Of a stretch of 54,816 bases of DNA, positions 8,578 through 37,445 are shown piece after piece. The stretch spans positions 1 through 54,816 of the forward strand of contig JACQUD010000032.1 of NCBI GenBank assembly GCA_016210485.1. Reading direction: 5' to 3'. The notes under the pieces were generated by a model, which worked only from the letters and a program-made list of their open reading frames with translations, made no database searches and had not been told where the DNA came from. Within the stretch, counting starts at the first letter, position 1; each line of letters starts with the position of its first letter. The position numbers and the translations under genes are program-made. The stretch is from Chloroflexota bacterium (lineage in GTDB: Bacteria > Chloroflexota > Dehalococcoidia > JACQUD01).

Positions 8578-8630
8578 GGGGCACTGCCCCAGAACGTAAC
8601 TTGGGCGGGTGGGTGGGAAAGGAAAACATC
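8578..8630 (+). repeat. Hairpin + G-quadruplex dispersed element, copy 1
   Basis: GGGGC-ACT-GCCCC, 12 nt, GGGCGGGTGGGTGGG (8603-8617), AAAGGAAAACATC. Confidence 0.75.
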
Positions 8631-8656
8631 GCTTCAAAGCTTTTAAGGAGAGCAGC

Positions 8657-9595
8657 TTGGCCCTGGACCTCTCGGTGAATCTGGCCCCCAGGCATCCCCG
8701 GGGACTGCCTCTGAGGAACCCGGTGATGACCGCCTCGGGCACCTGCGGCTACGGCCTGGAGCTGGCCGAGGCCATGGATGTCCAGAGGCTAGGGGCTATT
8801 GTCTCCAAGGGAACTACGCTTCACCCCCGCTCTGGCAACCCTCAGCCACGCCTGGCCGAGACAGCCTCCGGCCTCCTCAACTCCATCGGGCTGGAAAACA
8901 TCGGGGTGGAGGCCGTAGTCCGGGACAAAGCCCCGGCCTGGGCCAAGTGGCAAGTTCCTGTAATAGTGAACATCGCCGGGGAGACGGTGGCGGAGTATGC
9001 GGCCATAGCCCGCCGCCTGGAGGGCGTGGCGGGGGTGGCCGCCCTGGAGGTCAACGTAAGCTGCCCCAACGTGGAGACGGGAGGCCTGGAATTCGGCACC
9101 AGCCCCAGCGCGTCGGCCCAGGTCACTGAGGCCGTGCGCCGGGCCACCACCCTTCCCATCATCGTCAAGCTCACCCCCAACGTAACGGACATCCTGGAGG
9201 TGGCCCGGGCGGCGGAGGAGGCCGGCGCCGACGCCCTCACCCTCGTCAACACCCTGCGCGGCATGGCCATAGACAGGGCCAATCGGCGGCCTTTCCTGGG
9301 GGCCATCACCGGGGGCCTCTCCGGCCCGGCCATAAAGCCCGTGGCACTCTACATGGTCTACCGGGTGGCCGGGGCGCTGGATATACCCGTCATCGGCTGC
9401 GGTGGCATCGCCTCCGCCGAGGACGCCCTGGAGTTCTTTATGGCCGGCGCTCGGGCCATCCAGGTGGGGACGGCCACCCTGATTAACCCCGGAGCGCCCC
9501 TGGAAGTGCTGGAGGGCATCGAGCATCTCCTGGAGGCCCAGGGTCTCTCCAGCCTCTCTGAAATCACAGGAGCTGCCCTGCCCAAGAGAGGCTGA
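8657..9595 (+). CDS. pyrD: Dihydroorotate dehydrogenase class 1 catalytic subunit
   Basis: NPVMTASGT, KGTT, GNPQPR, NVSCPNV, VKLTPN, GGLSGPAIKP; TTG start at 8657 after AAGGAG. Confidence 0.95.
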   Translation: MALDLSVNLAPRHPRGLPLRNPVMTASGTCGYGLELAEAMDVQRLGAIVSKGTTLHPRSGNPQPRLAETASGLLNSIGLENIGVEAVVRDKAPAWAKWQVPVIVNIAGETVAEYAAIARRLEGVAGVAALEVNVSCPNVETGGLEFGTSPSASAQVTEAVRRATTLPIIVKLTPNVTDILEVARAAEEAGADALTLVNTLRGMAIDRANRRPFLGAITGGLSGPAIKPVALYMVYRVAGALDIPVIGCGGIASAEDALEFFMAGARAIQVGTATLINPGAPLEVLEGIEHLLEAQGLSSLSEITGAALPKRG

Positions 9596-9598
9596 CCA

Positions 9599-10972
9599 AT
9601 GAAACTCAATCCAAGCTTGCTCAGGCAATGGGATTGGGGCCTGTACTTGCTGATATTCCTGTACATGGGCCTACCCCAAATTTATCGTTCTTACAGCGTT
9701 TATTTGATAGGCAATGCCATCCCTGATACCAATGCCCTCGCAACCGTCGCTCAGTGGCAGTTCATGGAACTCCTGCTAGAGGTCGTCCAGGAGACCTTTG
9801 TGCTGGCAATATTTTTCTTTGTCGGGAGGTCTCTCCAGAACAGTATGAGCCCTGGGTATCCAATTAGAACCGCTTACACCATTATCTTCCTCTTTTCAAC
9901 ATTTATCGCAGCGATCATCTTCGCCCTATCCGGCAGCTTCGTGGACATTATCGGAACGCCGAAGACGATACAAGAAACTACCTCGCTATTTCTGAAGATA
10001 AAGTCTGCTGGCATTCCCATCGTGCTGTTAAGCACAGCCTCTGTGATCATGATCGAGACGATTAACCGGAAGAAGCTGATTCTGGCCACGGCTGTACTGA
10101 GTGTGCTGTACCGTGCGATTCTGGATAGCCTCTTCTACGGTGGCTATCCCTTCTCGCTGAATCTCGGGGTTTTAGGCGTTGCTTGGTCGGACACTATCGC
10201 CGCCCTAGCCTTACTCATAACTATATTCTTTCTAGTCCGGCCCATGATCAGGGAGACAATGGTAAGGTGGAGCGACTTCTTCTCATTCAAAGACTGGAAG
10301 ACCTATGTGAAAGTGGGTTTTGGATCAGGTCTGGATAGTCTGGTGAGAAACTTTGCCTACTTTTTCATGATCGTTCGGCTTCTTAATCTGCTGGGAGAGA
10401 ACGCTATTGGTGGCTACTACCTTGCGATGCACATTTTTTGGAGTTTCCTGCTTGTGCCTATCCTTGCCCTTTCTGAAAGCGCCAAGGTTTTGATAGCTAA
10501 TCACTGCGCAGATTTACACAAAGTGCGAACCCTGTGGGCTGCCTCAATGCTCATTGGAGTCATAATCGTTGTCGCCTGGTTAGTCCTTGTGCCCTTCTGG
10601 CGAGACTTCGCAGAGTTTCTGAATCCCAACGATGAATTTGTCAACTATTCTGTGCGGGCGATGCTAATTCTGCTCATTCCCTATGTCTTGCTTGCATTCA
10701 ACCTTATCACTGACAGCATCTTCTACGGCGTCGGAAGAACCAAGTACATGGCATACCAATCCATAATCACTAATGGAACGGTCTATGTCGCAGCATTCTC
10801 TGCCTACATAGCGGGAGTATGGACGCCAACTTTCAACTCCATCTTATGGCTATTCAGTATGGGAATCCTGGTTGACTCGGCTTTGACCTTGTACTTGGCC
10901 TTTCATGTCCTGTTCCCTAGAGATCAACTAAGAGGCGCAAAGAGAATCCCCGATTTGGCAACACTACCCTAG
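9599..10972 (+). CDS. MATE/MOP-like multi-pass membrane transporter, low-GC gene
   Basis: 457 aa with about 12 hydrophobic segments in two halves; markedly more AT-rich codons than the flanks. Confidence 0.7.
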   Translation: MKLNPSLLRQWDWGLYLLIFLYMGLPQIYRSYSVYLIGNAIPDTNALATVAQWQFMELLLEVVQETFVLAIFFFVGRSLQNSMSPGYPIRTAYTIIFLFSTFIAAIIFALSGSFVDIIGTPKTIQETTSLFLKIKSAGIPIVLLSTASVIMIETINRKKLILATAVLSVLYRAILDSLFYGGYPFSLNLGVLGVAWSDTIAALALLITIFFLVRPMIRETMVRWSDFFSFKDWKTYVKVGFGSGLDSLVRNFAYFFMIVRLLNLLGENAIGGYYLAMHIFWSFLLVPILALSESAKVLIANHCADLHKVRTLWAASMLIGVIIVVAWLVLVPFWRDFAEFLNPNDEFVNYSVRAMLILLIPYVLLAFNLITDSIFYGVGRTKYMAYQSIITNGTVYVAAFSAYIAGVWTPTFNSILWLFSMGILVDSALTLYLAFHVLFPRDQLRGAKRIPDLATLP

Positions 10973-11119
10973 AGTCAACATTTGCCGGGCCTAGTGAGAC
11001 GCCAACCAGAGCCCAGAGAAGGCCGGTGCATAAGGGATGACCTCACCCTACTCACCTTGATTTATGCTGCCTCCTATGATAGCCTTACCGATAAGTGCTC
11101 GAATAAGGTTTCAATGTAA

Positions 11120-12358
11120 ATGCGCATCATCGTCCTAGGGGCGGGCTTCGGCGGGCTGATGGCAGCCCTGGAGTTGGAGAGGCGGCTGCGTCGCGAGCCC
11201 GAGATTGAGGTGGCCCTCATAGACCGTCACCCCTATCACCTGTTCACCCCCATGCTCTTCCAGGTGGTGGCTGGGGAGGTAGAGCCAGGGCACATCGCCT
11301 ATCCCCTGCGCTGGCTGATGCGGGGCAAGAAGCTGAAGTTTTACGAGCGTGAGATACGCCACATAGACTTGGCCAACAAGAAAGTGCTCCTGGATGACGC
11401 CGAGCTGGACTATGATTACCTGGTCATGGGACTGGGAAGCATCACCAATTTCTTCGGCGTGCCCAAGGCAGAAAGCAACGCCTTCCCGGTAAAAAGCCTC
11501 CGAGAGGCCATGGCCATCAAGCACCGCATCATTGACGCCTTCGGCCAGGCCGAGGCCGAGCCCCGTCCCGAGGTCCGTCGCAGGCTACTCAGCTTCAGCG
11601 TAGTGGGCGGGGGAGCCACCGGTGTAGAGTTGGTGGCATCATTGCACGATCTGTTTCATCAGGTCCTGTCCCGAGATTACCCCCGCATCAACCCCAACGA
11701 GGTGTCCCTCTTCCTGGCCGAGGCCTCCTTCTCTCTCCTGGCGGGGATGGACCCTGGCATGGGCCAAATAACTTTGAAGAAGCTCCGGGTCAAGGGCGTG
11801 GACATCCACATGGGATGCCGCATCGTGGGCATTGATGAGGGCGGCATACACACCGCGGACGCCGCTTTCTTCCCCTGCCACACAGTCATCTGGGCCACGG
11901 GCATCAGACCCAACCCCCTCACGGAGCCCCTCCCCGTGCTCAAGGCCAAGGACGGACGGATCATAGTCCAGGACACCCTGGAGGCCCCCCAATGGCCCGG
12001 GGTCTACATTGTAGGAGACATCGCCTGTTTCCTGAACAAGGCCACAGAGACCCCCCTCCCTTGCAAAGCGGCGGTGGCGGCCCAAGAAGGGAGGGCCGCA
12101 GCCCAAAACATACTGCGCTCCCTCCGTGGACTGGACACTCTACCTTTCCATTACCGATACGAGGGCGACCTGGTGGCTCTGGGTCGTAACGCCTCGGTGG
12201 CCAGGGTCGCCAGGAGGTGCTTCGATGGTTTCCCAGCCTGGTTCCTGTGGCGCATCGTCCACCTTCAGAAGCTGCCCGGGTTCCGCAACCGAGTGAGCGT
12301 GGCCCTGGACTGGACCTTCGATTATCTCCTCCGCCGAGACACCATGAGGCTTGAGTAG
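11120..12358 (+). CDS. ndh: Type II NADH:quinone oxidoreductase family flavoprotein
   Basis: GAGFGG, HLFTPML, YDYLVMGLGS, VVGGGATGVE, VIWATG, GDIA, AAQEG. Confidence 0.9.
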   Translation: MRIIVLGAGFGGLMAALELERRLRREPEIEVALIDRHPYHLFTPMLFQVVAGEVEPGHIAYPLRWLMRGKKLKFYEREIRHIDLANKKVLLDDAELDYDYLVMGLGSITNFFGVPKAESNAFPVKSLREAMAIKHRIIDAFGQAEAEPRPEVRRRLLSFSVVGGGATGVELVASLHDLFHQVLSRDYPRINPNEVSLFLAEASFSLLAGMDPGMGQITLKKLRVKGVDIHMGCRIVGIDEGGIHTADAAFFPCHTVIWATGIRPNPLTEPLPVLKAKDGRIIVQDTLEAPQWPGVYIVGDIACFLNKATETPLPCKAAVAAQEGRAAAQNILRSLRGLDTLPFHYRYEGDLVALGRNASVARVARRCFDGFPAWFLWRIVHLQKLPGFRNRVSVALDWTFDYLLRRDTMRLE

Positions 12359-12385
12359 CCGGCCTAGATGCCCCAGCCTGGGGTC

Positions 12386-12414
12386 TTGACGAGAGCCCGA
12401 GAAAGATGTATAAA
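12386..12414 (+). promoter_or_regulatory. Sigma70-type promoter of groESL
   Basis: TTGACG (12386-12391), 17 nt spacer, TATAAA (12409-12414), with TG extension. Confidence 0.8.
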
Positions 12415-12419
12415 TTAGG

Positions 12420-12446
12420 TTAGCACTCTCAGGGACGGAGTGCTAA
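12420..12446. promoter_or_regulatory. CIRCE element (HrcA operator)
   Basis: Perfect TTAGCACTC-N9-GAGTGCTAA upstream of groES. Confidence 0.97.
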
Positions 12447-12477
12447 CCAAGTTGAATTCCGAGGGAGGAGGTGTTAT

Positions 12478-12771
12478 ATGGCTATCAATCTGGAGCCATT
12501 GGCCGACCGGGTGGTGGTGCGGCCCCTGAAGAAAGAAGAGGTAACCAAAGGGGGCATCCTCATCCCTGACACAGCCAAAGAGAGGCCCCAAGAGGGCGAG
12601 GTCATCGCCGTGGGCCCGGGCCGGCTGGACGACAAGGGCAAACGCATCACCCTGGAGGTGAAGGCGGGCGACAAAATCCTCTTCGCCAAGTTCGCCGGAA
12701 CAGAGTTCAAAGCCGACGAAGACGAGCTAATCGTCCTCAGGGAGAGCGACATCCTGGCTCGGATAACCTAG
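12478..12771 (+). CDS. groES: Co-chaperonin GroES
   Basis: LEPLADRVVV, TKGGILIPDTAKERP, AVGPG, ESDILA. Confidence 0.98.
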   Translation: MAINLEPLADRVVVRPLKKEEVTKGGILIPDTAKERPQEGEVIAVGPGRLDDKGKRITLEVKAGDKILFAKFAGTEFKADEDELIVLRESDILARIT

Positions 12772-12810
12772 CCGGGACAGAACTGATAGAGATAATAGAG
12801 ATAGTAGTAG

Positions 12811-14445
<1,635 letters not shown>

Positions 14446-14463
14446 GCCGTAACCTCGTAGCAA

Positions 14464-14501
14464 AAGAAGAGGGGCCTCCCCTTCGGGGAGGCCCTCTTCT
14501 T
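14464..14501. terminator. Intrinsic (probably bidirectional) terminator after groEL
   Basis: AAGAAGAGGGGCCTCCCC-TTCG-GGGAGGCCCTCTTCTT hairpin. Confidence 0.85.
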
Positions 14502-14523
14502 AACTATCTCTCCCAGGCATCCC

Positions 14524-14667
14524 TTAGGGGGATTGCTGACCCTGTTGCCGCTGTCCCCCGTAGGAGCCCCCACCGAAGAAACCAGCCCCCTCAGACATGA
14601 TGAGGATAGACCTGGCTATAACGGCGCCGTCCTCACCACGTTGGCCAACCACCGTTGCCCTCAGGCC
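14524..14667 (-). pseudogene. 3' remnant of a DUF5666-like gene
   Basis: Startless frame GLRATVVGQRGEDGAVIARSILIMSEGAGFFGGGSYGGQRQQGQQSP*; resembles the V-x-G-x4-DG-x3-A-x2-I motif plus Gly/Gln tail. Confidence 0.45.
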
Positions 14668-14706
14668 TCAGGATACCTACCTACAATCCTCAAAGAAAGA
14701 GGATTG

Positions 14707-15489
14707 CTACCGCTGGAAATGAGGAGGACGCCCCTCCAGGACGGACTGGACACCCTCCCGGGCATCCTGAGAAGTGAGAGCCTGGGCCAGGAGACGGCTT
14801 TCCAGAGCCAGCCCCGCCTCCAGGCTCAAGTCCAACCCCCGCACCACCGCCGCCTTGGCCAGCCGCACCGCCACGGGGCTCAGGGACAGGATTCTGCTAG
14901 CCATCTCCTGAGCTGTCGGCAGGAGCCGGGGGCGGGGAACCACCCGATTCACCAGCCCAAGGCGCAGCGCCTCTCCAGCACCGATGCGATCCCCCAAGAG
15001 GACCATCTCCATGGCCTTGCCCAAGGGTATGTGGCGGGGCAGAGTCTGAGTGCCTCCGGCGGTGGGCACCATCCCCAACCCCACCTCGGGCAGGCCGAAC
15101 TGGGCCTCCTCCGAAGCCACCCTGAGGTCGCAGCACAGGGCCATCTCTACCCCCGCCCCCAGGGCGTAGCCATGAATGGCAGCGATGAGGGGTTTCTCCT
15201 GAGCCAGGAACAACCCCCATAGATCCCGCTGCCAGCGCACCCGGCGGGCGATGGCCCGAGAGGGGGCAGTGCCAAACTCAGATATATCGGCGCCAGCACA
15301 GAAGGCGCGCTCCCCAACCCCCTGGAGTATGACGGCCTGGACATCAGGGTCCTCAGCCACGGACCCCAAGACCGCGTAAAGCTCGTCCCGCATTTGGATG
15401 CTGACGGCATTCAGTGCCTGGGGCCGATTCAAAGTTATATAAGCAAGGGGTCCTTCCTTGGAGTAGAGGATAGTCTGAAAAGGAGGCAT
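14707..15489 (-). CDS. Enoyl-CoA hydratase/isomerase (crotonase) family protein
   Basis: TLNRPQALNA, AFCAGADISE, GAGVEMAL, GLPEVGLG (both catalytic Glu positions present). Confidence 0.93.
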   Translation of the reverse strand: MPPFQTILYSKEGPLAYITLNRPQALNAVSIQMRDELYAVLGSVAEDPDVQAVILQGVGERAFCAGADISEFGTAPSRAIARRVRWQRDLWGLFLAQEKPLIAAIHGYALGAGVEMALCCDLRVASEEAQFGLPEVGLGMVPTAGGTQTLPRHIPLGKAMEMVLLGDRIGAGEALRLGLVNRVVPRPRLLPTAQEMASRILSLSPVAVRLAKAAVVRGLDLSLEAGLALESRLLAQALTSQDAREGVQSVLEGRPPHFQR

Positions 15490-15493
15490 GGCC

Positions 15494-16051
15494 TTAGGGG
15501 TCTACGGCCCGATCCATGAGCTCTCGCAAAGATACGACGTTATGCCTGGAACCTATCCTGTTAAGCGCATGGGCATCGCTATTGGTCAGCATGAGCAGCC
15601 CTTTCTCCCGGGCATACTCGCGGGCCTTCTCTTTAGCTATCTCGTACCCGTGGAGGGCGTTATCCACCTCAATGCCCTGCACCTCCCCCACCTCGTGGAA
15701 AGAGCGCTCTACCAGTTCCCTGGGGTGAACCCAGAACCGAAAGACTTTGTTATTGGGCAAATAGAGCTCCACCTGCTCCTCCCTCACACCCCTGGCCCAC
15801 TCCCTGCCAGGGAGGATAAGGATATCATCATCGAAATGGGCCTTGGCCATCTCCATGAAACGGTAGCCATACTCCCGGTCCCAGTGCTCGGTGTCGGCGA
15901 TGCCGTCCAGGCCTGCCTCTTTGATGCGGTCCAGTACCTTCCGCACCACATCTGGGCTGGGCTGATAGTATCCCAGACACTCATAGACGTGGCAGTGCAA
16001 ATCCAACTTCAGCTTCTTATCCAAGTTCTCCGGAGCAAAGAAATCTTTCAC
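15494..16051 (-). CDS. PHP-domain metallophosphoesterase
   Basis: DLHCH, GIADTEH, GRE, VHP, NSDAH metal-ligand motifs. Confidence 0.85.
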   Translation of the reverse strand: MKDFFAPENLDKKLKLDLHCHVYECLGYYQPSPDVVRKVLDRIKEAGLDGIADTEHWDREYGYRFMEMAKAHFDDDILILPGREWARGVREEQVELYLPNNKVFRFWVHPRELVERSFHEVGEVQGIEVDNALHGYEIAKEKAREYAREKGLLMLTNSDAHALNRIGSRHNVVSLRELMDRAVDP

Positions 16052-16060
16052 TGCTGAGAC

Positions 16061-16843
16061 TCATCCCCCCTTGAAACGCGGAGACCTTTTCTCTAGAAAG
16101 GCGCGGATGCCCTCATCCCGGTCGGCAGTGGTCTGAAGTATAATAGAGAGGTCTGCCTCCAGGCGCAGCCCTTGATCCAGAGGGGCATCCATCCCCTTAG
16201 CCACTGATTCTTTGGCGTAAGTTACAGCGATGGGGGCCCGCTCCAGTATGCGCCTGGCCATCTCCTCGGCCCCTGCCAGGGCGTCACCACGGGGAGTCAA
16301 ACGGTTGACCAATCCCAAGCTCAAGGCTTGGGCGGCATCCAGGGTCTCAGCGATGAGCAACATCTCCAGGGCTTTGCCCCGTCCCACCAGTCGAGGCAGG
16401 CGTTGGGTGCCGCCTCCCGCAGGGATGAGGCCCATGGCTACCTGGGGGAGAGAGAAGCGAGCCTCCTGAGAGGCCACCCTCAGATCGCAACACAGAGCCA
16501 GCTCCAAGCCAGCGCCTATAGCATCCCCCTCTATGGCAGCGATGATGGGCAGCCGCAGGCCGGCCAGCGCAACAGTAGCCTGCCGGGCCGGCGGCCATCG
16601 CCGCTGCTCCATAGCCCCCCCCCAACCACGCCGATACTCCTCCAGGTCCTCTCCACAGCAGAAGATTCCCCCCGCTCCAGCCAGCAAAACGAGGCGCGCC
16701 TCATCGTCATCGGTTATCTGCTGACAGGCCTCGGCTATCTCCTCAGCCATTGCCATATCCAGGAGATTGCCTCGCTGAGGGCGGTTCAGGATAAGATAGC
16801 AAACTGCATCTCGTTTCTCTACGAGAATAGCCTGATAACGCAA
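16061..16843 (-). CDS. Enoyl-CoA hydratase/isomerase family protein
   Basis: LNRP, FCCGEDL, GAGLELAL, LPQVAMG; TTG start at 16843 after GGAG. Confidence 0.9.
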   Translation of the reverse strand: MRYQAILVEKRDAVCYLILNRPQRGNLLDMAMAEEIAEACQQITDDDEARLVLLAGAGGIFCCGEDLEEYRRGWGGAMEQRRWPPARQATVALAGLRLPIIAAIEGDAIGAGLELALCCDLRVASQEARFSLPQVAMGLIPAGGGTQRLPRLVGRGKALEMLLIAETLDAAQALSLGLVNRLTPRGDALAGAEEMARRILERAPIAVTYAKESVAKGMDAPLDQGLRLEADLSIILQTTADRDEGIRAFLEKRSPRFKGG

Positions 16844-17035
16844 TCCGCTCCTAAAACTTGAGTTGGAAGATTTGCTCCCATGATAAGGCGAGATAGCTTT
16901 AAGTGTCAAGGGAGATAGGTTGTTTCCCCCAGTTGACTTCCTGATTGCCTTAACTTACTATCTAGCTATCCACATAAAGCAGGAATGGGTCCGCGTAAAG
17001 CAGGCTCTTTTGTTTAAAGACTTACCTCTACGCAA

Positions 17036-18307: not shown

Positions 18308-18333
18308 GCTGCTAAACACTGGAACCTCGGAGT

Positions 18334-19245: not shown

Positions 19246-19402
19246 AGCAATCTCCCAACATAGCTGCTTCCATTATATACTTCCTCACTAAAAGAGTCCG
19301 CCGAGCCAAATTAGGCATAGCTAGAGAAATAGAGCCAAAAGCGGCTCAGCTTTTCTTCCTAATGATCAGGGCTCCTTTCAAGACAGGGAATCAGGGAAAG
19401 CG

Positions 19403-20421: not shown

Positions 20422-20476
20422 TCCAGGCTTTGCTTTTGCCCACACTTGTTAGAAAGAGGGCCCTAACGAACCACAT

Positions 20477-28882: not shown

Positions 28883-28918
28883 GCTGCCTCCTCGACGCTG
28901 GCAACCTGGCGGACGCTT

Positions 28919-29299
28919 TCAGGGGTTGCCTTTCTCTTCAGCCACTATGTCCGTTATATCGAAGCTCATCTTGCCCAGGCCCTGCACCACGAAGCCGATG
29001 CCAACTTTATGGGGGCCGGAGGCCAGCTTCATGCCCTTCGCAAGAAGTGTGGAGGTCTTGTTCATGGCCAGGGTGAAGGGCGCCTCTTTGCTCACGGCAG
29101 TGAAAGGGACCTCCTTGTCGTCCTGGAGGAAGAAGGAGCCCTCCAGGGGTAGCTCCTGGCCATCCACGGAGAGAGGGAGCATCTCCCGAGCGTAGCCTGA
29201 GCCCAGGGTGTTCTTGAGCTGGAGCTGGAAGCCCCCCTGGTTATTCCTGAGGCTCCCCTTGACGTAAAGCCTCCTGAGGATGAAGGAGGGGACTAGCAC
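28919..29299 (-). CDS. Hypothetical beta-rich protein (VPSFILRRLYVKGSLRN family)
   Basis: GTG at 29299 after SD GGAGGTG; last gene of the kinase operon. Confidence 0.75.
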   Translation of the reverse strand: MLVPSFILRRLYVKGSLRNNQGGFQLQLKNTLGSGYAREMLPLSVDGQELPLEGSFFLQDDKEVPFTAVSKEAPFTLAMNKTSTLLAKGMKLASGPHKVGIGFVVQGLGKMSFDITDIVAEEKGNP

Positions 29300-29320
29300 C
29301 TTACACCTCCCACAGTTTAG

Positions 29321-29371
29321 GATGTTTTTCGTACCCACCCGCCCGCCCAGTATGCTTGGAGGGCTTTGCCC
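29321..29371 (-). repeat. Hairpin + G-quadruplex dispersed element, copy 2
   Basis: Minus strand GGGC-AAA-GCCC, 12 nt, GGGCGGGCGGGTGGG (29348-29334), TACGAAAAACATC. Confidence 0.75.
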
Positions 29372-29389
29372 ACAGCTCAGCGTTCTGTC

Positions 29390-30052
29390 TCATTCCTGCT
29401 CCTGGAGCATCCGGAAGAAGGCCTGCCCCACCTCCACGATATCCGGAGGCAGGAGGTTCACCTGGCCCAGGGAGGCGGCCATGACATAGACCTGGGACGC
29501 CTTCTCCAGGAGCTCGGCGGCGGTGAGGGCCCGCCGCAGATCCCGGCCCACAGCCACGGCCCCATGATTGGCCAGGATGACGGCGTTGTGCCCTCCCAGA
29601 GCCGAGACCACGTTAGTCGAGAGCTCCTCGGAGGCAGGGAGACCGTAGGGAGCTACCGAGATGCCGCCCCCCAGGAACACCACCTGGTCATCCAGAATAG
29701 CGGGAAGCTCCCTCCCGGCCACAGCCAGGGCGCTGGCATAGACGGAGTGAGTATGGAACACAGCTCCTACGTCAGTTCGGGCGCGGTAGATGGCAGCATG
29801 GAGCAGGGTCTCCGCAGAAGGAACCAGGTCCCCCTCCACCGGCTCCGCCTCAAAGTCCACCACCACAATGTCCTCGGCAGACAGGGTGTCGTAGTAGCGG
29901 CGAGAGGGGGTGATGGCCATGAGGTCGCGGCCTTCGGCGGCGGACAGGCGACGGCTGACGTTGCCCGAGGTGCCCACCACCAGCCCCTTCTTTTCCATGA
30001 GGAGGCTAGCCTCCAGCACCTGCTGCCGCTCCTCCAACCAGCGAGTCATCAT
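29390..30052 (-). CDS. Class II aldolase/adducin family (FucA-like)
   Basis: GTSGNVS, AITPS, PSAETLLH, VFHTHS, LANHG zinc-ligand motifs. Confidence 0.92.
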   Translation of the reverse strand: MMTRWLEERQQVLEASLLMEKKGLVVGTSGNVSRRLSAAEGRDLMAITPSRRYYDTLSAEDIVVVDFEAEPVEGDLVPSAETLLHAAIYRARTDVGAVFHTHSVYASALAVAGRELPAILDDQVVFLGGGISVAPYGLPASEELSTNVVSALGGHNAVILANHGAVAVGRDLRRALTAAELLEKASQVYVMAASLGQVNLLPPDIVEVGQAFFRMLQEQE

Positions 30053-31563
30053 AGCACCTCCGGGCCCAATTGCTCCAGGCCCTGGGCCAGCTTTTGCCAA
30101 CGGCCGTAGCACTCCTGGTACTCGGCAGCTATGAGCGCCTCCGGCTCGTATGTTTGGAATGGGGGGAGCATGGCCTGGCAGGCCTCCTCCAGGCTGGAGT
30201 AGACGGTGGCTGCGCCAGCGGCCATGGCTGCTCCCAGGGTGGAGACGTGGGGCTGGGCCGACACCTTCACCGGCCGGTAGAGGACGTGGGCCAAGATGTG
30301 GCCCAGGAGGTGGCTGCGTGAAAGCCCCCCACCCACGTGCATACCCGATACCTCTATCCCAGAGATAGCCTCCAGCTGTGCACAGTTGGCCCTGAGGGCG
30401 AAGGCCAGGTTCTCCAGAAAGGCCCGGGCCAGATGGCCTCGGCTCACCGCGCCCAGGGAGCGAGGGACGGGAAAGAGGAAGCCACCCAGTCGCAACCCCA
30501 GGCGGCCCATATCCATGAGTTGGGGCCCCAGGAGAGCCAGGGTGCCCTCGGCCCCCAAGGGCGACGCCTGGGCCGCCGCCTCCAGAGAAACGTAGCCCTC
30601 AGACCCGTCGCCGGGGAACAGGATGTCCTTGAGCCAGCGATAGACGCTGCCAACCTCCCCGGCGTTGCCCTCCACCACCCAGCGTCCGGGGAAGGCATGG
30701 CAGCCCGTCCAGATGCGAGACTCCTTATCTATCAGAGGTCTCTCCAGGGGAAGCTGGAGGCTGGCGCTCCAGCCTGCCACTATCCCCCCCTGGCCCTCAG
30801 CGTAGACGCCCATACCCAGGAGACCACACTGGGTGTCAGCCCCACCCAGGGCCACCGGGGTGCCGGGGGCCAGGCCCGTCTCCTGAGCGGCGCGAGGCGT
30901 CACCACGCCCACCCGCGCTCCCGCCGAACCCAGGGGCGGGTAGATCCCCGAGGGCAGGTCCAGGAGCTTCCTGAGGCGCTCCGACCAGTCCCCCTGGCTT
31001 ATGTCTAGGAGGCCCACCTCCCCGACGCTGGAGACGGCGACTGCGGCCTCCCCGCACAGCCTATAAGTTACCCAGCCATCTAAGGGCAGCGCGCAGGCGA
31101 TTCTCTCGAAGTCCTTCGGCCTCTGGCTACAGAACCAGCGCAGCTTGGCCGGGGCGAAGAGGAAGGAGGGGCGGTGCCCGGTGATGGCGTATATCTCCTG
31201 TCCGAACTCCTCGTCCAGAGCCATGCCCTCCATGAAGGCGCGCAGGTCTACGTTGGGGCCGGCATATATCTCCTGCCCCTGGGCGTCCAGGAAGACCAGA
31301 CCCTCCCTCTGGCTGGTGGCGCTCACCGCCAGGATGTCTTTAGGAGAGGCCCCGCTGGCGGCCAGAGCATCCTGAATGGTCTGGGCTATAGCCCGCCAGA
31401 AGGTCCTGGGATCGAACTCGCGGCCCAGGGGAGCCAGGTCTCCGGGGGTCTCGTAGCTCCAGGAACGAGAGGCGAAGGCCACGGCCTGGCCTTGAAGGTC
31501 GACGATGAGACAGCGGCAACCTTCGGAGCCGGCGTCCAGGCCCATGAGGTATTTAGTGGCCAT
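30049..31563 (-). CDS. FGGY-family carbohydrate kinase, LsrK (AI-2 kinase)-like
   Basis: YLMGLDAGS, EFD, VSATSQREG, NVDLRA, GGADTQ, GGGLSRS. Confidence 0.88.
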   Translation of the reverse strand: MATKYLMGLDAGSEGCRCLIVDLQGQAVAFASRSWSYETPGDLAPLGREFDPRTFWRAIAQTIQDALAASGASPKDILAVSATSQREGLVFLDAQGQEIYAGPNVDLRAFMEGMALDEEFGQEIYAITGHRPSFLFAPAKLRWFCSQRPKDFERIACALPLDGWVTYRLCGEAAVAVSSVGEVGLLDISQGDWSERLRKLLDLPSGIYPPLGSAGARVGVVTPRAAQETGLAPGTPVALGGADTQCGLLGMGVYAEGQGGIVAGWSASLQLPLERPLIDKESRIWTGCHAFPGRWVVEGNAGEVGSVYRWLKDILFPGDGSEGYVSLEAAAQASPLGAEGTLALLGPQLMDMGRLGLRLGGFLFPVPRSLGAVSRGHLARAFLENLAFALRANCAQLEAISGIEVSGMHVGGGLSRSHLLGHILAHVLYRPVKVSAQPHVSTLGAAMAAGAATVYSSLEEACQAMLPPFQTYEPEALIAAEYQECYGRWQKLAQGLEQLGPEVL

Positions 31564-32551
31564 GCTGCCCCCAGGCCTGGGGATTGAGGAGATGCGCAGG
31601 TCGCTCTCCGCGCAAGAAGTGCAGGATGTCCTCAGCTATCATCTCCGAGTGCCGGGCGATGGTCTCTTGGGTAGCGCCGCCGATGTGTGGGGTGAGCACC
31701 ACGTTGTCCAAGCCCAGCAGGGGATTGTCCGGGGCCACGGGGTGGCTGGGGAATACGTCCAGGCCGGCCCCGGCCAGCCGTCCTTTTTTCAAGAAATCGG
31801 CCAGAGCCTCTTCATCGATAAGGGCGGCATCGGCGGTGTTTATGAGGTAAGCCGAAGGCTTCATCAAGGCCAGGCGCTCCTTATCGATGAGCCCCCGGGT
31901 GACATCAGTGGCCGGGCAATGGAGGCTGAGGAAGTCGGACTGGCGGAGCAGGGTCTCCATGTCCACCAAGGCAACCCCTGTGCCTTGGGCCTGAGCTGGC
32001 TGGACATAAGGATCGTGGGCCAGAACCTTCATGCCCAGGGCCGAGGCACGGCGGGCCAGCTCAGCGCCGATGGCCCCCAGTCCCACCAACCCCAGGGTCT
32101 TGCCCCCTAGCTCCAGCCCCCGCAAGGAGATGTAAGGTTCGGTAGGGTCTTCCCAGGCCCCCGAGGCCACCATCTGGTGGGCGGGAGGGATACGGCGGGC
32201 CAGACACAGCATGAGGGCCAGGGCCATCTCGGCCACGGCGGGAGCATTGCGCCCCGGGGTGTGCGCCACAAGGACGCCGTGCCGGGTGGCGGCATCCACG
32301 TCCACATTATTGGGGTTGCCTCGGCAGACTCCTAAAAATTTGAGACGGGGCGCTTGCTCGAAAGTCTCCTCGAAGACGAAATCGGCCTCCACTACCAGGA
32401 TAGCTATGTCCTCGCCGCTCAATCTCTCCGCCAGTTCCTCAGGAGAGTATAATCTCCGGCTATCCAGCCAGCTTTCGTAGGCGACTTCCAACTCGGCCCG
32501 GAGCTTTTCCAGAGCCGGGGAGGAGAAGGGGGCCAGGATAAGGGCTTTCAT
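31553..32551 (-). CDS. D-isomer-specific 2-hydroxyacid dehydrogenase family protein with atypical active site
   Basis: TPGRNA, GLVGLGAIG, SLHCP, TPHIGG; INTADA and DVFPSHP replace INxARG and DVFxxEP. Confidence 0.88.
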   Translation of the reverse strand: MKALILAPFSSPALEKLRAELEVAYESWLDSRRLYSPEELAERLSGEDIAILVVEADFVFEETFEQAPRLKFLGVCRGNPNNVDVDAATRHGVLVAHTPGRNAPAVAEMALALMLCLARRIPPAHQMVASGAWEDPTEPYISLRGLELGGKTLGLVGLGAIGAELARRASALGMKVLAHDPYVQPAQAQGTGVALVDMETLLRQSDFLSLHCPATDVTRGLIDKERLALMKPSAYLINTADAALIDEEALADFLKKGRLAGAGLDVFPSHPVAPDNPLLGLDNVVLTPHIGGATQETIARHSEMIAEDILHFLRGERPAHLLNPQAWGQHGH

Positions 32552-32681
32552 AGTCGAACCTTGGCATATGATACCACAAAGCTGGCCTGCTCTAAAATTA
32601 AGATTGAGAGCGGCCAGCCATGCTCGGCGCTCCCGGCGCTGGGTTCGACAGGCTCGGGGTGAGCGGCCCAGATCGGTTCGG

Positions 32682-33170
32682 CTATCGGATGAGGAAGTCC
32701 GCCACCTTCCGAAAGTTCTCCGGCACCAGACGGAGGACAAAGGGGAAGTAGTCCAGGAGCCGGGAGGCCAGGGCCGAGTCTTTCAGCGTTGGCTCCAGAT
32801 CGATGTAGTGGGAGGCCAGGAGGATGAGCACCAGGCTGACCAACGTCCCCAGGACCAGCCCGATAGCACCTCCGGCCAGACGGTTCAGCCATCCCAGCAT
32901 TATAAGAGAGAGGGCCTTACTGATGAGAGAAGCGATAATGGCCGAGGCCACCAGCGCCGCCACCAGGATTATGGCGAAGGCAGCGAACCGGGCCAGGCTA
33001 CTCTCCGAGGAGAGGACGTTGCTAGCCAGGGGCTGGTAGTAGCGCATGGCCGCCACCACCCCCACGGCCGTCCCTACGAGGGGCAGGACCAGCTTCACCG
33101 CCCCCATGAGCAACCCCGTTACTCCCAGGGCTATGGCAGCGACCAGGACAAACATATCTAGCCAGTTCAT
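32682..33170 (-). CDS. CvpA-family membrane protein
   Basis: MNWLD start, 4 TM segments, LGWLNRLAGGAIG, C-terminal S.LA. Confidence 0.85.
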   Translation of the reverse strand: MNWLDMFVLVAAIALGVTGLLMGAVKLVLPLVGTAVGVVAAMRYYQPLASNVLSSESSLARFAAFAIILVAALVASAIIASLISKALSLIMLGWLNRLAGGAIGLVLGTLVSLVLILLASHYIDLEPTLKDSALASRLLDYFPFVLRLVPENFRKVADFLIR

Positions 33171-33215
33171 GACATCTCCCTATATCTAGTGTTATTCAGT
33201 ATATCAGATATTATA

Positions 33216-33650
33216 TTACTTCGGCATCAGATTGATGGTGCGCAGCACCTCTTGAGCATCCACTTCGGTGTCGATACAGCCGTCCTTGTGGAGAGGGATA
33301 ATGATAATGGCAGGGTCCAGCCCTTCCTGGCTCATCTGCTTCACCCCCTCCACCCCCAGAGCCAGTTCCTGAGCACAGGCCACGGCCACGATGCCCCGGG
33401 GCTGATGCTGCTTCACAAAGCGGAGAGCCATGGCCCCGCCAGCGGCGACGCAGACCCCGGCGTAGCCCAGGCGCAAGGCCTCCTGGCGGAAACGGTGGAT
33501 GACGCACTTCTCCAAGCAGTCCTCGGGGCACTGAAGACCTTCTTTGGTGTATTTGCCGAGGCAAGTCTCGCTGGGGCGGAGACAATGGGGAAGGAGGAGA
33601 ACCCTCCGATTAGGAGCCACCTGGGTCAAGTCCTGACCTACAGCTTCCAT
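33216..33650 (-). CDS. DUF116-family Cys-rich protein
   Basis: LLLPHCLR..C, CxxxCxxxC, VAAGG, IVAVAC..EL, GCIDT. Confidence 0.85.
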   Translation of the reverse strand: MEAVGQDLTQVAPNRRVLLLPHCLRPSETCLGKYTKEGLQCPEDCLEKCVIHRFRQEALRLGYAGVCVAAGGAMALRFVKQHQPRGIVAVACAQELALGVEGVKQMSQEGLDPAIIIIPLHKDGCIDTEVDAQEVLRTINLMPK

Positions 33651-33672
33651 CTGTTACCTCCTATCCTCTAAT

Positions 33673-35586
33673 CTAAGGTAAGGCCCTCTGGAACTGGCCC
33701 AGGGCCATCAGGGGGAAATAGTTTCGATACAGATGATAGTTGATCATGAAGTCGCCAGGGAAGCCAGTGCCGGTGAAGTAGGGTTCCTCCCAGGTGCCGT
33801 CCTCCCTTTGGGTATCCATAAGATATCGGATGCCGCGGAGCACCTCAGGGCTGGGCCCTTCGGCAGCCAGGAGACCCATGATGGCCCAGGCCGTCTGGGA
33901 GGCGGTGGAGGGGCCTTGGCCACGAAGGGAGGGATTCTTATAGGAGTCGCAGGACTCCCCCCAGCCCCCATCCGGGTTATGGCGAGCCTTGAGCCAGGCG
34001 GCAGCCCGCCGAATGTATTCCTGCCCCATATCCTCCCCAGCAGCCTTGAGGGCCAGCATAGCCGACCAGGTGCCGTAGATATAGTTTACCCCCCAGCGCC
34101 CGAACCAAGCGCCATCGGCCTCCTGTTCCTTCTTCAGATAGGACAGGCCCCGGGCCGATGGACGATAGGTGAGGGGGTAGCCCAGCCGCCCCAGCATCTC
34201 CAACATGTGGGCAGTGACATCGGCGGAGGGAGGGTCCAGGAACTCGCCGAAGTCGGCGAAGGGGATCTGGGCCAGAGGCCCCTTGTTGTTGTCCATGTCG
34301 AAAGCGCCCCAACCCCCGTTGCGGCTCTGCATGCTCACCGACCAGACGACGCCCCTCTCTATGGCCTCTTCCAGGGCTTCTCTTTCAGGCAAGGAGACCT
34401 TCTTCAGGGCTATCACTACCTCGGCCACGTCGTCCACGTCGGGATAGAGGTCGTTCTCGAACTCGAAGGCCCAACCCCCGGGGGGCGTCCTGGGGTTCTT
34501 CACCTGCCAGTCGCCCCCGGCCATTATCTGCTCCTGGAGAAGCCAGCGGGCCGACCTCTGGAGGGCGGGGTGGTCGGGAGAGAGGCCGGAGTCAGCCAGG
34601 GCAATGACAGCCAGAGCAGTGTCCCACACCGGGGAGACGCAGGACTGGTGGTGCCAGGAGTCCCCCTCATCTATGGCGAAGGCCTCGAACCCTTGAAGCC
34701 CTTTGACCATTACTGGATGGTCCATAGGATAGCCCCGGAGCTTGAGGGCCAGGAGGGAGTAGACCCAGGGGGGCTGGATGCCACCCCAGGAGCCATCGGC
34801 CTCCTGGTGCTCCACGATCCAGCCCTCGGCCCGGCGCAGGGCGGCGCTCCGGCCCGGCTTCCAGGGAAGCTTATCGTAGGCCCGGAAGGCCCGGTCCAGG
34901 GCCAGGAAGAAGGACTTCCAGCTCGCCCAGCGCTGTCTCCGAGGCATGGCAAAGGCATCATGAGGTAGAGGCTGGGGGTAAAGCTCCTGGATGTCCATGG
35001 GCAGGGTGCAGCGAGGCTTCTTGTGGAGGATGACGAGCATGGGGACTACGGTTCCCCGTGCCCAGCAGGCGAACTCGTAGATATTTAGATAAAACCAGTT
35101 GGGCAATAGCACGACCTCCGGAGGCATGGCCGGCACTCCCTTCCAGGGGAACTGACCGAATAGGGCCAGCCATATCTTGGTGAAGACCCTGGCCCTGGGG
35201 ATGCCCCCCCTGGCCAGGATGAACTCTCGGGCCTTCCTCATGAAATCGGCCTCGGGAGAGATGCCCGCCACCTTGAGAGCGAGGTAGGCCTCGATGGTGG
35301 TGCTCAGGTCGCCGGGGCCACCATACCATATGGCCCAGGTGCCATCGGGGCGCTGGTGGCTCCGGATGTAGTTGGCTATCTGCCTCTCCCGCTCGGGCAG
35401 GGGGACGCCCAGGAAGCGACGCAGTAGGAGGTATTCCGCGGTTATGGTCACGTTGGACTCCAGCTCCCCGGCCCAGTAGCCCTGGGGGGCCTGAGTGCGC
35501 ATGAAGTAGCCCTGGGAGCGCTGGAGGGCCAAGGACAGGCGCTCCTGGAGTCCCCTATCTTTAGTCAGCGTTTCAATCTCCATCAC
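33673..35586 (-). CDS. shc: Squalene-hopene cyclase
   Basis: YPDVDD (DxDD), multiple QW repeats, SPVWDT, GRWGVNYIYG, GTGFP. Confidence 0.97.
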   Translation of the reverse strand: MMEIETLTKDRGLQERLSLALQRSQGYFMRTQAPQGYWAGELESNVTITAEYLLLRRFLGVPLPERERQIANYIRSHQRPDGTWAIWYGGPGDLSTTIEAYLALKVAGISPEADFMRKAREFILARGGIPRARVFTKIWLALFGQFPWKGVPAMPPEVVLLPNWFYLNIYEFACWARGTVVPMLVILHKKPRCTLPMDIQELYPQPLPHDAFAMPRRQRWASWKSFFLALDRAFRAYDKLPWKPGRSAALRRAEGWIVEHQEADGSWGGIQPPWVYSLLALKLRGYPMDHPVMVKGLQGFEAFAIDEGDSWHHQSCVSPVWDTALAVIALADSGLSPDHPALQRSARWLLQEQIMAGGDWQVKNPRTPPGGWAFEFENDLYPDVDDVAEVVIALKKVSLPEREALEEAIERGVVWSVSMQSRNGGWGAFDMDNNKGPLAQIPFADFGEFLDPPSADVTAHMLEMLGRLGYPLTYRPSARGLSYLKKEQEADGAWFGRWGVNYIYGTWSAMLALKAAGEDMGQEYIRRAAAWLKARHNPDGGWGESCDSYKNPSLRGQGPSTASQTAWAIMGLLAAEGPSPEVLRGIRYLMDTQREDGTWEEPYFTGTGFPGDFMINYHLYRNYFPLMALGQFQRALP

Positions 35587-35598
35587 CTAATTCGCCCT

Positions 35599-36642
35599 TC
35601 ACCCAGGGCCTGCCTGTCCCCCCGCTTTCAGGGGCGTCGAGCGGGCCTGGGGAGTCTTCTTCACGTATCCGTGGTCCAGAAACCAGCGGGCGGCGTCCAC
35701 CAGAGCATGCCCAATGGGAGTCTGGGGGAGGCCCAGCTCCCGGACGGCCTTGGAGGCATCGTAATACATGGGCTTGCGGGCCATCCTCACCCCCTCCAGA
35801 GGGATGCGCGGCTCCCTCCGGAGAAGCTTGCCCTCGATAGCATAGTCGATGTAGCCCAAGGCCAGGGCCAGCCCCCAGGGGAGGCGATGCCGGGGGGCTG
35901 GCAGCCCCGTCACCTCAGCCAGCTTCTGAAGGAGGTCCTTCATAGTCAAATTCAAGTGGCCCAGGATGTAGCGACAGCCAGTTTTTCCCCTCTCCAGGGC
36001 CAGAATGTGTCCCCGGGCCACATCCCGGACATGGACGACGTTGAGGCCGGTGTCGATATAGGCCGGCATGCGGCCGTTGAGGAAGTCCAGCACTATGCGC
36101 CCGGTAGGGGTGGGCTTGGCATCCCAAGGGCCGATAGGGGTGGAGGGGTTGACAATGACCACGGGCAGGCCCTCGGCGGCGAATCTCAGGGCCACCTTCT
36201 CCGCCAGATATTTGGACCTCTTGTAGTGGCCCACCAGGCCCCGGGAGTCCAGTAGCGTATCCTCGGTGCCGGAGCCGTGGGGGAGCCGACCCACAGCGGC
36301 GACGCTGCTGGTGTAAACAACCTTCTCTATCCCTATTTTCTGGGCTGCGGCCAGGATATTCTCGGTGCCCTGGACGTTAGCCCGATATATGGCCTGGGGA
36401 TGGCGATGCCAGAGGGTGTAGGCGGCGGCGGCGTGGAAGAGGGCCTGGCAACCCTCCAGGGCCAGACCCAGGGAGGCTGTCTCCGTTATGTCCCCCTGGG
36501 CCAGCTCCACATCCAGCCCCTTCAGGCTAGCGGTGTTGCTGGTAGGGCGAACCAAGGCTCTCACCTGGTAGCCAGAGGCCAGGAGCTCTCGCACCAGGTT
36601 AGCCCCGATGAAGCCGGTGGCGCCGGTGACCAGGACTCTCAT
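35599..36642 (-). CDS. hpnA: Hopanoid-associated NAD-dependent epimerase/dehydratase
   Basis: VTGATGFIG, YTSS, HYKRSK, NPSTPIGPWDAKPTPTG; located between hpnG and shc. Confidence 0.9.
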   Translation of the reverse strand: MRVLVTGATGFIGANLVRELLASGYQVRALVRPTSNTASLKGLDVELAQGDITETASLGLALEGCQALFHAAAAYTLWHRHPQAIYRANVQGTENILAAAQKIGIEKVVYTSSVAAVGRLPHGSGTEDTLLDSRGLVGHYKRSKYLAEKVALRFAAEGLPVVIVNPSTPIGPWDAKPTPTGRIVLDFLNGRMPAYIDTGLNVVHVRDVARGHILALERGKTGCRYILGHLNLTMKDLLQKLAEVTGLPAPRHRLPWGLALALGYIDYAIEGKLLRREPRIPLEGVRMARKPMYYDASKAVRELGLPQTPIGHALVDAARWFLDHGYVKKTPQARSTPLKAGGQAGPG

Positions 36643-37445
36643 ATGTCTCCCTGCCCCGCTTTGAAGACGTTCTCTCTTCCCACCCGCCCACCCAGAGGCG
36701 GGGCTGCACCCCCTGCCCAGTCCACTCCAGTAAAATGGCTTTCCTCCTGGTAAGCGGACGAGCGGATAAGCTCCCGGGTGAAAGCGATGGCCCAGGCCCC
36801 CAGGGCACGCGAGGCCCGACGGGAGCGGAGGCCCAGGCAAAGGAATCCATGCCAATGCTGGGGTCTCAGGACAAAATATCTTATGGCTTTTCCAGCCAGC
36901 AAACGCCCGTCGGCATTGATGAAAGGGTTGAGGTCGGGCACGAACTCCTCCTGGGGGTCAAGGACGGCCCGAACTGAGAGGAAGGGGAGGCCCTTTTCTT
37001 GGGCGGCCCACCCCACCCAGAAGCTCTCCATATCCACCACCTGCACCCCTAGGCCCCGGCCCAGAGCCTCCTTTTCCTTAGGGGAGGTAGCCACGCAGTT
37101 TTGGGTAAGGCCCTCGCCTTCCCTCCAAGGGAAAGATGTAGCCTCGATGGCCCGCCGGGCGACCTCCAGGAGGGCAGGATGACACACCACGCTCCTCGGC
37201 TCTTCTTTCTCTCCATGCCAGTGCACCCGACGGCATAGCACCAACTCCCCCGGCCTCAGACCAGGCTGAGTCCCCCCGGAGAAGCCCAGGGAGACCAGGG
37301 CGCAGTGGGGATGGGCCGCCAGCGCTTTAGCGACCCCCACCTCCGTAGCCCACCGCCCCATCCCTGTGGCCAGGGCCAGGGCGTCTGTTCCCAGGCCTCG
37401 AATCCTCGCTATCTCCTGGGGCATGGCGCTGAGAAAGACTATCAT
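36639..37445 (-). CDS. hpnG: Adenosylhopane nucleosidase/phosphorylase
   Basis: AMPQE, TGMG, SLGFSGG, VVDMES, SVRAVLD; translationally coupled to hpnH; C-terminal tail runs through a repeat element. Confidence 0.82.
   Translation of the reverse strand: MIVFLSAMPQEIARIRGLGTDALALATGMGRWATEVGVAKALAAHPHCALVSLGFSGGTQPGLRPGELVLCRRVHWHGEKEEPRSVVCHPALLEVARRAIEATSFPWREGEGLTQNCVATSPKEKEALGRGLGVQVVDMESFWVGWAAQEKGLPFLSVRAVLDPQEEFVPDLNPFINADGRLLAGKAIRYFVLRPQHWHGFLCLGLRSRRASRALGAWAIAFTRELIRSSAYQEESHFTGVDWAGGAAPPLGGRVGRENVFKAGQGDI
36666..36712 (-). repeat. Hairpin + G-quadruplex dispersed element, copy 3
   Basis: Minus strand GGGGT-GCA-GCCCC, 6 nt, GGGTGGGCGGGTGGG (36693-36679), AAGAGAGAACGTC. Confidence 0.72.

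Follow-up and report, generated by a model that had tools for sequence, protein, structure and literature searches.

The stretch analyzed here (the window) is the 54,816-nucleotide (nt) contig JACQUD010000032.1 of a Chloroflexota metagenome-assembled genome (MAG) from the class Dehalococcoidia (GenBank assembly GCA_016210485.1). This MAG, G000, comprises 1.24 Mb in 76 contigs, is 69% complete and has a GC content of 59.7%; the window is its contig C23. Three copies of a short structured element lie in the window, upstream of a DHO_dh (pyrD) gene, a gene for a small HMG-CoA_red_N protein and an hpnA-like epimerase gene, respectively. The copies have a common layout consisting of a GC hairpin, a spacer of 6–12 nt with a final T, the G-rich box GGGYGGGYGGGTGGG (the G-box), 7 nt and AACRTC. 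The individual features are as follows.

8531..8540 (+): partial C-rich box ACCCACCCAC of copy 1, the inverted partner of the copy-1 G-box and left arm of the inverted-pair form
8552..8577 and 8578..8590 (+): two GC hairpins 5′ of the box of copy 1 (ViennaRNA fold)
8603..8617 (+): G-box of copy 1, GGGCGGGTGGGTGGG, a (G3N1)3G3 motif (sequence reading and pattern match)
8618..8640 (+): tail of copy 1, consisting of 7 A-rich nt, AACATC (8625–8630) and GCTTCAAAGC, with TTCAAAGC at 8633–8640
8657 (+): TTG start of the gene downstream of copy 1, DHO_dh (pyrD; Pfam)
29361..29371 (−): hairpin of copy 2, GGGCAAAGCCC (sequence reading and fold)
29321..29348 (−): G-box and tail of copy 2, with the box at 29348–29334 and AACATC at 29326–29321
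29299 (−): GTG start of the gene downstream of copy 2, a small HMG-CoA_red_N protein (Pfam)
36700..36713 (−): hairpin of copy 3, GGGGGTGCAGCCCC (sequence reading and fold)
36658..36693 (−): G-box and tail of copy 3, with the box at 36693–36679, AACGTC at 36671–36666 and TTCAAAGC at 36665–36658
36642 (−): ATG start of the gene downstream of copy 3, an hpnA-like epimerase (Pfam)
36639..36735 (−): element-encoded 3′ extension of an hpnG-like open reading frame (ORF), ~31 codons (translation)

All three boxes are exact copies of GGGYGGGYGGGTGGG, the distance from the last G of the box to the end of AACRTC is 13 nt in each, and TTCAAAGC follows AACRTC in copies 1 and 3. With up to one mismatch permitted, the box pattern has three matches in the window where 0.16 would be expected, a count not attained in any of 100 shuffles. 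The box ends 39, 34 and 36 nt before the start codon in copies 1, 2 and 3, respectively. The original prediction, made from the letters of the window, had described the three copies and their distances to three unrelated genes; the copies were confirmed base for base and the distances were reproduced, with Pfam support for the downstream genes. Its placement of the copies between cistrons does not strictly apply to copy 3, where the upstream PNP_UDP_1 (hpnG-like) ORF has no stop before the element, continues through it for ~31 codons and overlaps the hpnA start by an ATGA. The box satisfies the canonical motif of an intramolecular G-quadruplex (G4; four G3 tracts with loops of 1–7 nt), and the minimum-energy fold of the copy 1 box contains a G4 once such structures are permitted in ViennaRNA. 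By this energy model and the motif, the box is predicted to fold into a G4.

The hpnG–hpnA adjacency is conserved among relatives. In 8 of 10 relatives, the hpnG stop falls between a 4-nt overlap with hpnA and 36 nt before it, with no element present (the other two gave no read-out), and the G4 motif was found at none of 80 metagenome hpnA loci. The closest hpnA to that of G000 in the collections is 58% identical, leaving no near relative for an empty-site comparison. Because the element is missing at this junction both in the relatives and at the 80 metagenome loci, copy 3 is an insertion into the 3′ end of hpnG that the relatives lack.

Beyond the window, the family numbers ~22 copies in G000. 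Nine exact (G3N1)3G3 motifs occur in this genome, eight of them within a common T...A-rich/ACGY context (one is cut by a contig end); the ninth lies inside a gene on contig C4 and lacks that context. A profile of box and tail (nhmmer) returned 12 matches at E < 1, and ~10 weaker ones were accepted for their hairpin and tail context. Two further copies have kept the hairpin and tail with a decayed box. Weak nhmmer matches inside genes (window positions 32189 and 43138; contigs C8, C50 and C76) were judged to be chance. The G000 consensus is CT-GGGYGGGYGGGTGGG-AAAGAAAAACGTTACTAAAC, and likeness among copies stops ~25 nt past the box. The box loops vary (C, T or A) and the G tracts are kept. In predicted folding energy, the 45 nt 5′ of the box (20 copies) average −14.4 kcal/mol compared to −9.1 kcal/mol for random intergenic 45-mers (Mann–Whitney p = 2e-6). 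Sub-families can be recognized from the hairpins: four to five copies share one hairpin sequence and six share another, all six with imperfect boxes. Inverted box pairs surround central hairpins at three G000 loci, and the layout of copy 1 (C-box, hairpins, G-box) recurs at C57:12380/12490 and C11:213/313. With the exception of one ORF tail, all G000 copies lie outside called genes in a genome that is ~12% intergenic. The flanking genes are functionally unrelated and include sdhC/D, fpg, thyX, an aminoacyl-tRNA synthetase, ABC permeases and ftsH, among others. Genes were called with our own codon-score caller, for which 27 of 29 flanking calls in G000 were confirmed by Pfam. As the caller is unreliable at 64–69% GC, orientation tallies derived from it in GC-rich genomes were discarded, and Pfam-verified genes were used for the carrier genomes G033 and G015. 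Three G000 copies touch contig ends, and contig ends also fall within copies in other carrier genomes, marking assembly breaks. DNA of the window was found in groundwater metagenome runs, with no RNA run among those listed; in reads of four DNA runs from one study, contigs end at or beside the elements and no joint that skips an element was seen, a result that carries no evidence on presence or absence.

The distribution of the element was then surveyed across the class. A box with flanking T and A was present in 29 of 401 sampled Dehalococcoidia genomes, patchily and at 1–69 copies each, with a reversed-pattern control near 0. Among the copy numbers were 69 (G121), 34, 24, 20, 19 and 17. In most carriers the unit is longer than in G000 and consists of a GGAGTG block, hairpin 1, CCGGGGG, hairpin 2, 8–15 nt, the box and AA; the class-wide consensus has a conserved GGAGT(G/C) just 5′ of hairpin 1 that the G000 copies lack. 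A tail similar to that of copy 1 (AAAGAAGAACGTTGGTTCAAGCC) follows the box in a genome from another family (L309). Unit length differs between genomes, from ~90 nt in G015 and ~135 nt in G033 to 215 bp in G121, in which 16-bp inverted ends bound the unit and both ends were found at 24 of 30 loci. Each genome has its own main box variant; in G105 it is carried by 23 of 25 copies, in G185 by 17 of 20 and in G121 by 56 of 69. Copies occur solo, as inverted pairs and in direct arrays with a period of ~110–150 nt.

The hairpins covary. In a MAFFT alignment of 40 copies that was fitted to no structure, 80.4% of cells were consistent with the two-hairpin pairing, compared to 69.2% after shuffling, and 15 of the 18 paired positions showed compensatory double changes. 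The covariation score was 0.303 versus 0.155 for shuffled alignments (0/500 shuffles reached it) and fell to 0.05–0.14 when the pairing was slid. An RNAalifold consensus that paired C-rich hairpin arms with the box (−1.3 kcal/mol) showed no covariation and was discarded, and the two hairpins were counted directly. A GAAC-N4-GTTC palindrome after the box of one G152 copy is absent from other copies and was set aside as coincidence. The element had been proposed to be undescribed, and no described counterpart was found: at the gathering threshold, the covariance models of Rfam 15 matched only a tRNA fragment in the window, and in 30 loci at E ≤ 1 they gave only T-box, tRNA-Sec and sub-threshold chance matches. 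Likewise, literature searches on quadruplex or REP/MITE-type repeats (defined below) in Chloroflexi or Dehalococcoid bacteria yielded no description of the element.

Gain and loss were followed at orthologous sites in one genus, represented by two closed genomes and one MAG. The ribD–ribE site carries the element in all three species and a second site carries it in two. At two more sites it is present in a single species, with empty spacers of 37–88 nt in the sisters; at one of these single-species sites, at least three units are clustered within 640 nt. Where a site is kept in orthologues, the hairpins have diverged or are partly deleted while the box is unchanged. On presence or absence in relatives, which the original prediction had named as a check, both gain and loss were seen within one genus; before hpnA the relatives examined lack the element.

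Strand polarity was assessed from the GC skew of the strand bearing the box, a test independent of gene calls. The box lies on the C-rich strand at 19 of 20 loci in G033 (mean skew of the box strand −0.19), 6 of 6 in G185 (−0.14), 5 of 6 in G256 (−0.07), 10 of 13 in G015 (−0.04) and 5 of 6 in G105 (−0.02). In G033, the sense-strand skew of genes is −0.18 when they are co-oriented with the box and +0.20 when they are opposite, and read on the box strand, the skew is negative for 27 of 29 Pfam-verified genes. Because the skew in G033 follows the box strand over genes on either strand, the asymmetry appears to be of the replication type rather than transcriptional. Adjacent copies share an orientation more often than they differ (46 to 25). 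The skew at the 20 G033 loci (L001–L020) is itself very strong (mean |GC skew| ~0.19 in 3-kb flanks), runs by DNA strand rather than gene strand and is unusually large for a bacterium.

Taken together, these data favor, with a probability of roughly 0.55, the view that the three window copies are members of a non-coding dispersed repeat family, mainly of Dehalococcoidia, that is of the repetitive extragenic palindromic (REP)/bacterial interspersed mosaic element (BIME) type or the miniature inverted-repeat transposable element (MITE) type, with a G4 core and a polarity set at the DNA level. The suggestion of a REP- or MITE-like unit built around a G4 is supported by the ~22 copies in G000, the 29 carrier genomes, the gain and loss at orthologous sites, the arrays and the inverted pairs. 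Each unit begins with one or two GC hairpins, which a short spacer separates from the invariant (G3N1)3G3 box and its A-rich/ACGY tail. Copies multiply and disappear within lineages, lie almost solely between genes, occur solo, in direct arrays or as inverted pairs, and have a sequence variant specific to each genome. Polarity is fixed on the DNA, with the G-box on the C-rich strand of strongly skewed genomes regardless of the direction of neighboring genes. From this bias, two routes to the polarity can be inferred. Insertion may be strand-specific and proceed through single-stranded DNA, or copies may be purged when their quadruplex falls on the wrong replication template. In the compact G000 genome, several copies have landed in short operon spacers or a gene 3′ end and hence necessarily lie ~35–45 nt before the next start. 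Such operon copies would be transcribed as a hairpin and G4 in mRNA. Overall, the element looks like a repeat rather than a regulator of adjacent genes, with a role at the RNA level remaining a rival.

Several observations weigh against the dispersed-repeat reading, beginning with the enzyme that would move it. Y1_Tnp (PF01797), the domain of REP-associated tyrosine transposases (RAYT) and of the IS200 transposase, was not found in G000, G121, G033, G015, G152 or G082. Four genomes do have it (G391, G343, G185 and G105), but in two of these, G343 and G185, repeats other than the G-box family surround the Y1 gene; the proposed RAYT or IS200 TnpA flanked by the element was not found. Five carrier genomes gave no match to TnpB or IS110 domains, and the search for Y2_Tnp was uninformative, its control matching nowhere. 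No target-site duplication was common to the flanks of 24 complete G121 units, nor was an autonomous partner of that unit found, the 2.2-kb pair of ends enclosing ordinary genes. Inverted ends were seen only in the G121 form and not in the G033 and G015 consensus. Because MAGs often lose insertion sequences, the missing transposase is weak evidence; two of the transposase-negative genomes are single-contig assemblies, and G000 is only 69% complete. With respect to polarity, the association with skew was not seen in G000, G121, G391, G282 or the genus g53, all weakly skewed. On a single G033 contig, the ribosomal-protein operon lies on the G-rich strand and five boxes lie on the other strand; by the usual rules, this one contig would make the box lagging-strand sequence (leading-strand template). 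At ribD–ribE, the box and its neighbors are invariant in 18 of 18 columns across three species whose coding flanks are 83–88% identical, and at the second site the box is identical in two species. The invariance of the box while the hairpins decay suggests selection for a function, or gene conversion among copies, and not a neutral parasite. Finally, Pfam-verified tandem contexts tilt toward sense (10:5 in G000, 4:2 in G033 and 5:0 in G015).

A bolder extension, held tentatively and as a minority possibility, is that the box is the working part of a RAYT-less, class-wide repeat, in which the G4 is kept by selection while the rest decays and the orientation is locked to replication. The element would then be either a G4-dependent single-stranded DNA mobile element or a domesticated polar G4 signal. 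The former, if true, would be the first of its kind and would owe its movement to an unrecognized enzyme family; the latter would act on replication, transcription or mRNA decay in Dehalococcoidia, with possible look-alikes in other phyla.

Because the box is invariant and sense contexts are in excess in three genomes, a function for the host, at the RNA level or otherwise, was retained as a rival. One form, which we consider rather unlikely, is a host-selected cis-acting RNA. Transcribed in operons, the hairpins, an RNA G4 and the A-rich linker would stabilize the intercistronic RNA, block exonucleases, provide a processing site or insulate translation, and the repeat, although it spreads, would be kept for that role. 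The box that is invariant at orthologous intercistronic sites (ribD–ribE in three species, and the second site), the covarying hairpins and the G4 within the predicted minimum-energy RNA fold all fit this proposal, as does the combined sense excess of 19:7 in Pfam-verified tandem contexts of the three genomes. Among the 13 G000 copies with a same-strand downstream gene, seven end 34–46 nt before the predicted start. Five of the six orientable perfect boxes in G000 are sense; perfect boxes make up 5 of 10 sense and 1 of 5 antisense copies, numbers too small for a claim. Against it, the G000 tandem contexts include five antisense copies, one of which (C1:39638) has a perfect box, and a few other copies lie in divergent or convergent regions. 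Among the Pfam-verified G033 flanks, 4 tandem contexts are sense and 2 are antisense, and there are 3 divergent and 2 convergent contexts; those of G015 comprise 5 sense, 0 antisense and 1 convergent. Polarity in G033 tracks strand skew rather than the gene strand: of the 29 verified flanking genes, 11 run opposite to the box. The element is missing before hpnA in relatives. Start-codon distances elsewhere range from 22 to several hundred nt by crude gene calls. The spacing was not taken as designed because the 25-nt tail and a ribosome-binding site largely force the distance in short operon spacers. Of the structured RNA at a fixed distance from start codons that had been put forward, the 34–46 nt clustering of 7 of 13 sense copies therefore survives; the five antisense tandem copies, others 93–127 nt upstream of genes and the skew-linked polarity do not agree with it.

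More doubtful is a chromosomal polarity or replication-linked DNA signal, similar to Chi or the FtsK-orienting polar sequences (KOPS), or a programmed fork or transcription pause caused by a G4 on one template strand. Strong strand polarity independent of gene direction in skewed genomes, regional concordance of orientation, a box that is invariant at retained sites and the lack of an associated transposase all fit such a signal. Known short polar motifs of the Chi/KOPS type also lie inside genes, whereas the G-box copies are limited to intergenic DNA and embedded in longer repeat units. The distribution is also patchy (29/401 genomes, often one genus per family), copy number ranges from 1 to 69, and sister species gain and lose copies. 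Of the traits of Chi/KOPS-type motifs, strand polarity was seen in G033, G185 and G256; location inside genes and sharing across relatives were not seen.

Very improbable is a repeat that carries a promoter, or an upstream site bound by a sigma factor or regulator, with the box and ACGY as two recognition blocks. The conserved core of ~30 bp does have two blocks. Five G000 copies are followed by a gene 93–127 nt downstream, and −10-like hexamers such as TGGTATAAT (at C11 and C14) lie in the intervening sequence; the copy at C11:213 is upstream of a TTGAAA-N18-TATAAT tRNA promoter. Against this, antisense and convergent copies occur, one copy sits between a T-box leader and trpS, the flanking genes have no common function, and for the window copies the spacing rules it out, the start codons 34–39 nt past the box leaving no room for a −35, a −10 and a leader.

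The dispersed-repeat reading can be set against known systems. REP/BIME sequences are short extragenic palindromes moved by RAYT (Y1 HUH) transposases, with a GTAG-type tetranucleotide 5′ of the hairpin foot. The G-box family resembles them as short structured extragenic repeats in tens of copies that occur solo, in direct arrays and as inverted pairs, with hairpins kept by compensatory change, genome-specific variants and strand-specific polarity. It differs in its conserved core, where a (G3N1)3G3 box on the 3′ side of the hairpins takes the place of a 5′ tetranucleotide at the hairpin foot, and in that Y1_Tnp was not found in six carriers; where a RAYT does occur, the palindromic repeat around it is a different one. 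One such case, L379 (G343:C1:820827-824093), is a canonical REPtron in which a RAYT-type Y1 gene lies amid inverted ~28-nt palindromic repeats that end in a GTAG-type motif (at 1321 and 1385 (−) and 1897 (+); also L309:321-360). This repeat occurs at more than 25 places in G343 and G057 with 93–100% identity and is separate from the G-box family. MITEs, such as the Correia elements of Neisseria, are similarly non-autonomous, 50–220 bp long, intergenic and variable between close relatives, with possible co-transcription with neighbors, and the 16-bp inverted ends of the G121 form add to the likeness. In contrast to MITEs, inverted ends were not seen in the G000, G033 and G015 forms, and no target-site duplication or related autonomous element was found. 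The ends of IS200/IS605 elements have subterminal hairpins, a conserved single-strand motif, no duplications and a replication-strand orientation (the strand bias of IS608). ORF-less derivatives of these elements would share with the G-box family the hairpins with a nearby conserved motif, the lack of duplications and the replication-strand orientation; by contrast, TnpA (Y1_Tnp) and TnpB were not found in most carriers, and a left-end/right-end pair was not recognized.

Among G-rich motifs, TMECO of Escherichia coli is probably the nearest described analogue. It consists of a pyrimidine arm, a purine arm and a third purine strand, and nuclear magnetic resonance showed a triplex and not a G4 (PMC4666352). 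As presented there, TMECO motifs are, like the G-box family, dispersed, strictly intergenic, highly conserved G-rich non-B-DNA motifs of ~20 copies, without an attached mobile-element gene and linked to local sequence variability. In contrast to the G-box family, they are without strand bias (PMC4666352). The order in the G-box family is a G-rich arm, a C-rich arm and four G3 tracts with 1-nt loops. A triplex reading of the G-box element was rejected, since its hairpin arms are G-rich and then C-rich and its stems are not homopurine (motif definition from PMC4666352). In Xanthomonas and Nostoc, G4-forming heptamer simple-sequence repeats are described (PMC4692102). These are likewise quadruplex-prone and enriched in particular lineages but are tandem simple-sequence repeats, whereas the G-box family has a single four-tract box in a structured dispersed unit.

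Bacterial G-quadruplex biology has few natural, repeated and evolutionarily constrained examples. A genome with the G-box family can supply dozens of naturally occurring copies, oriented both ways, in many contexts and with clear strand polarity, and the box stays constant where the rest drifts. Two questions thereby become open to direct test: whether bacteria tolerate or use quadruplexes on particular strands in replication or transcription, and by what means REP-like elements move without a RAYT. For annotation, the family accounts for assembly breaks, odd C-terminal ORF extensions (as in hpnG) and conserved non-coding blocks in Dehalococcoidia MAGs.

An all-species scan returned at least 121 loci, 44 of those listed being Chloroflexota; many of the non-Chloroflexota matches among those listed are Streptomyces-type contexts that are apparently unrelated. 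A hairpin, ~10-nt spacer, box and A-rich tail do occur outside Chloroflexota (L078, L117, L138 from a Gammaproteobacteria MAG, L118 from a Faecalibacterium MAG, L120, L174, L087 and L188), and one non-Chloroflexota MAG holds three copies with a common downstream sequence. These look-alikes could reflect convergence, transfer or mis-binning.

Individual loci in the carriers showed further associations. In L019 (G033:C56; 1082–1343 and 1430–1535), a full G-box unit lies between a T-box leader (Rfam, 97 bits) and trpS, and the box ends 32 nt before the trpS ATG. A tRNA-Sec gene (Rfam, 65 bits) at 1650–1741 (+) of L045 (G121:C4) adjoins a 215-bp G-box unit. The cluster at L311 (G343, ~1653–1700) contains a split box, GGGCGGG followed by a small hairpin of ~26 nt and TGGG, which could be a variant with a long loop or the product of a nested insertion. 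The window itself begins with the 3′ part of a tRNA gene truncated by the window start (1–57 (+); Rfam, 33.6 bits), and at 16863–16881 (−) it has a hairpin of the ATGGGAGC.AA.CT.CCA type, that of one G000 sub-family, with neither box nor tail, which may be a relic. A second repeat family was also recognized in G000 (C7:39609, C28:1597, C36:243-330, C42:14042, C51:33412, C62:22083 and C66:49889). It has the class-wide hairpins 1 and 2 (GGGGGTGTCCCCC type) and then, with no G-box, a polypyrimidine-loop-polypurine hairpin (CCCTCTCC...GGAGAGGG) followed by further G-rich sequence, an arrangement resembling the E. coli TMECO triplex motif. The two families thus apparently combine the same hairpin scaffold with different heads, a G4 in one and a triplex type in the other.

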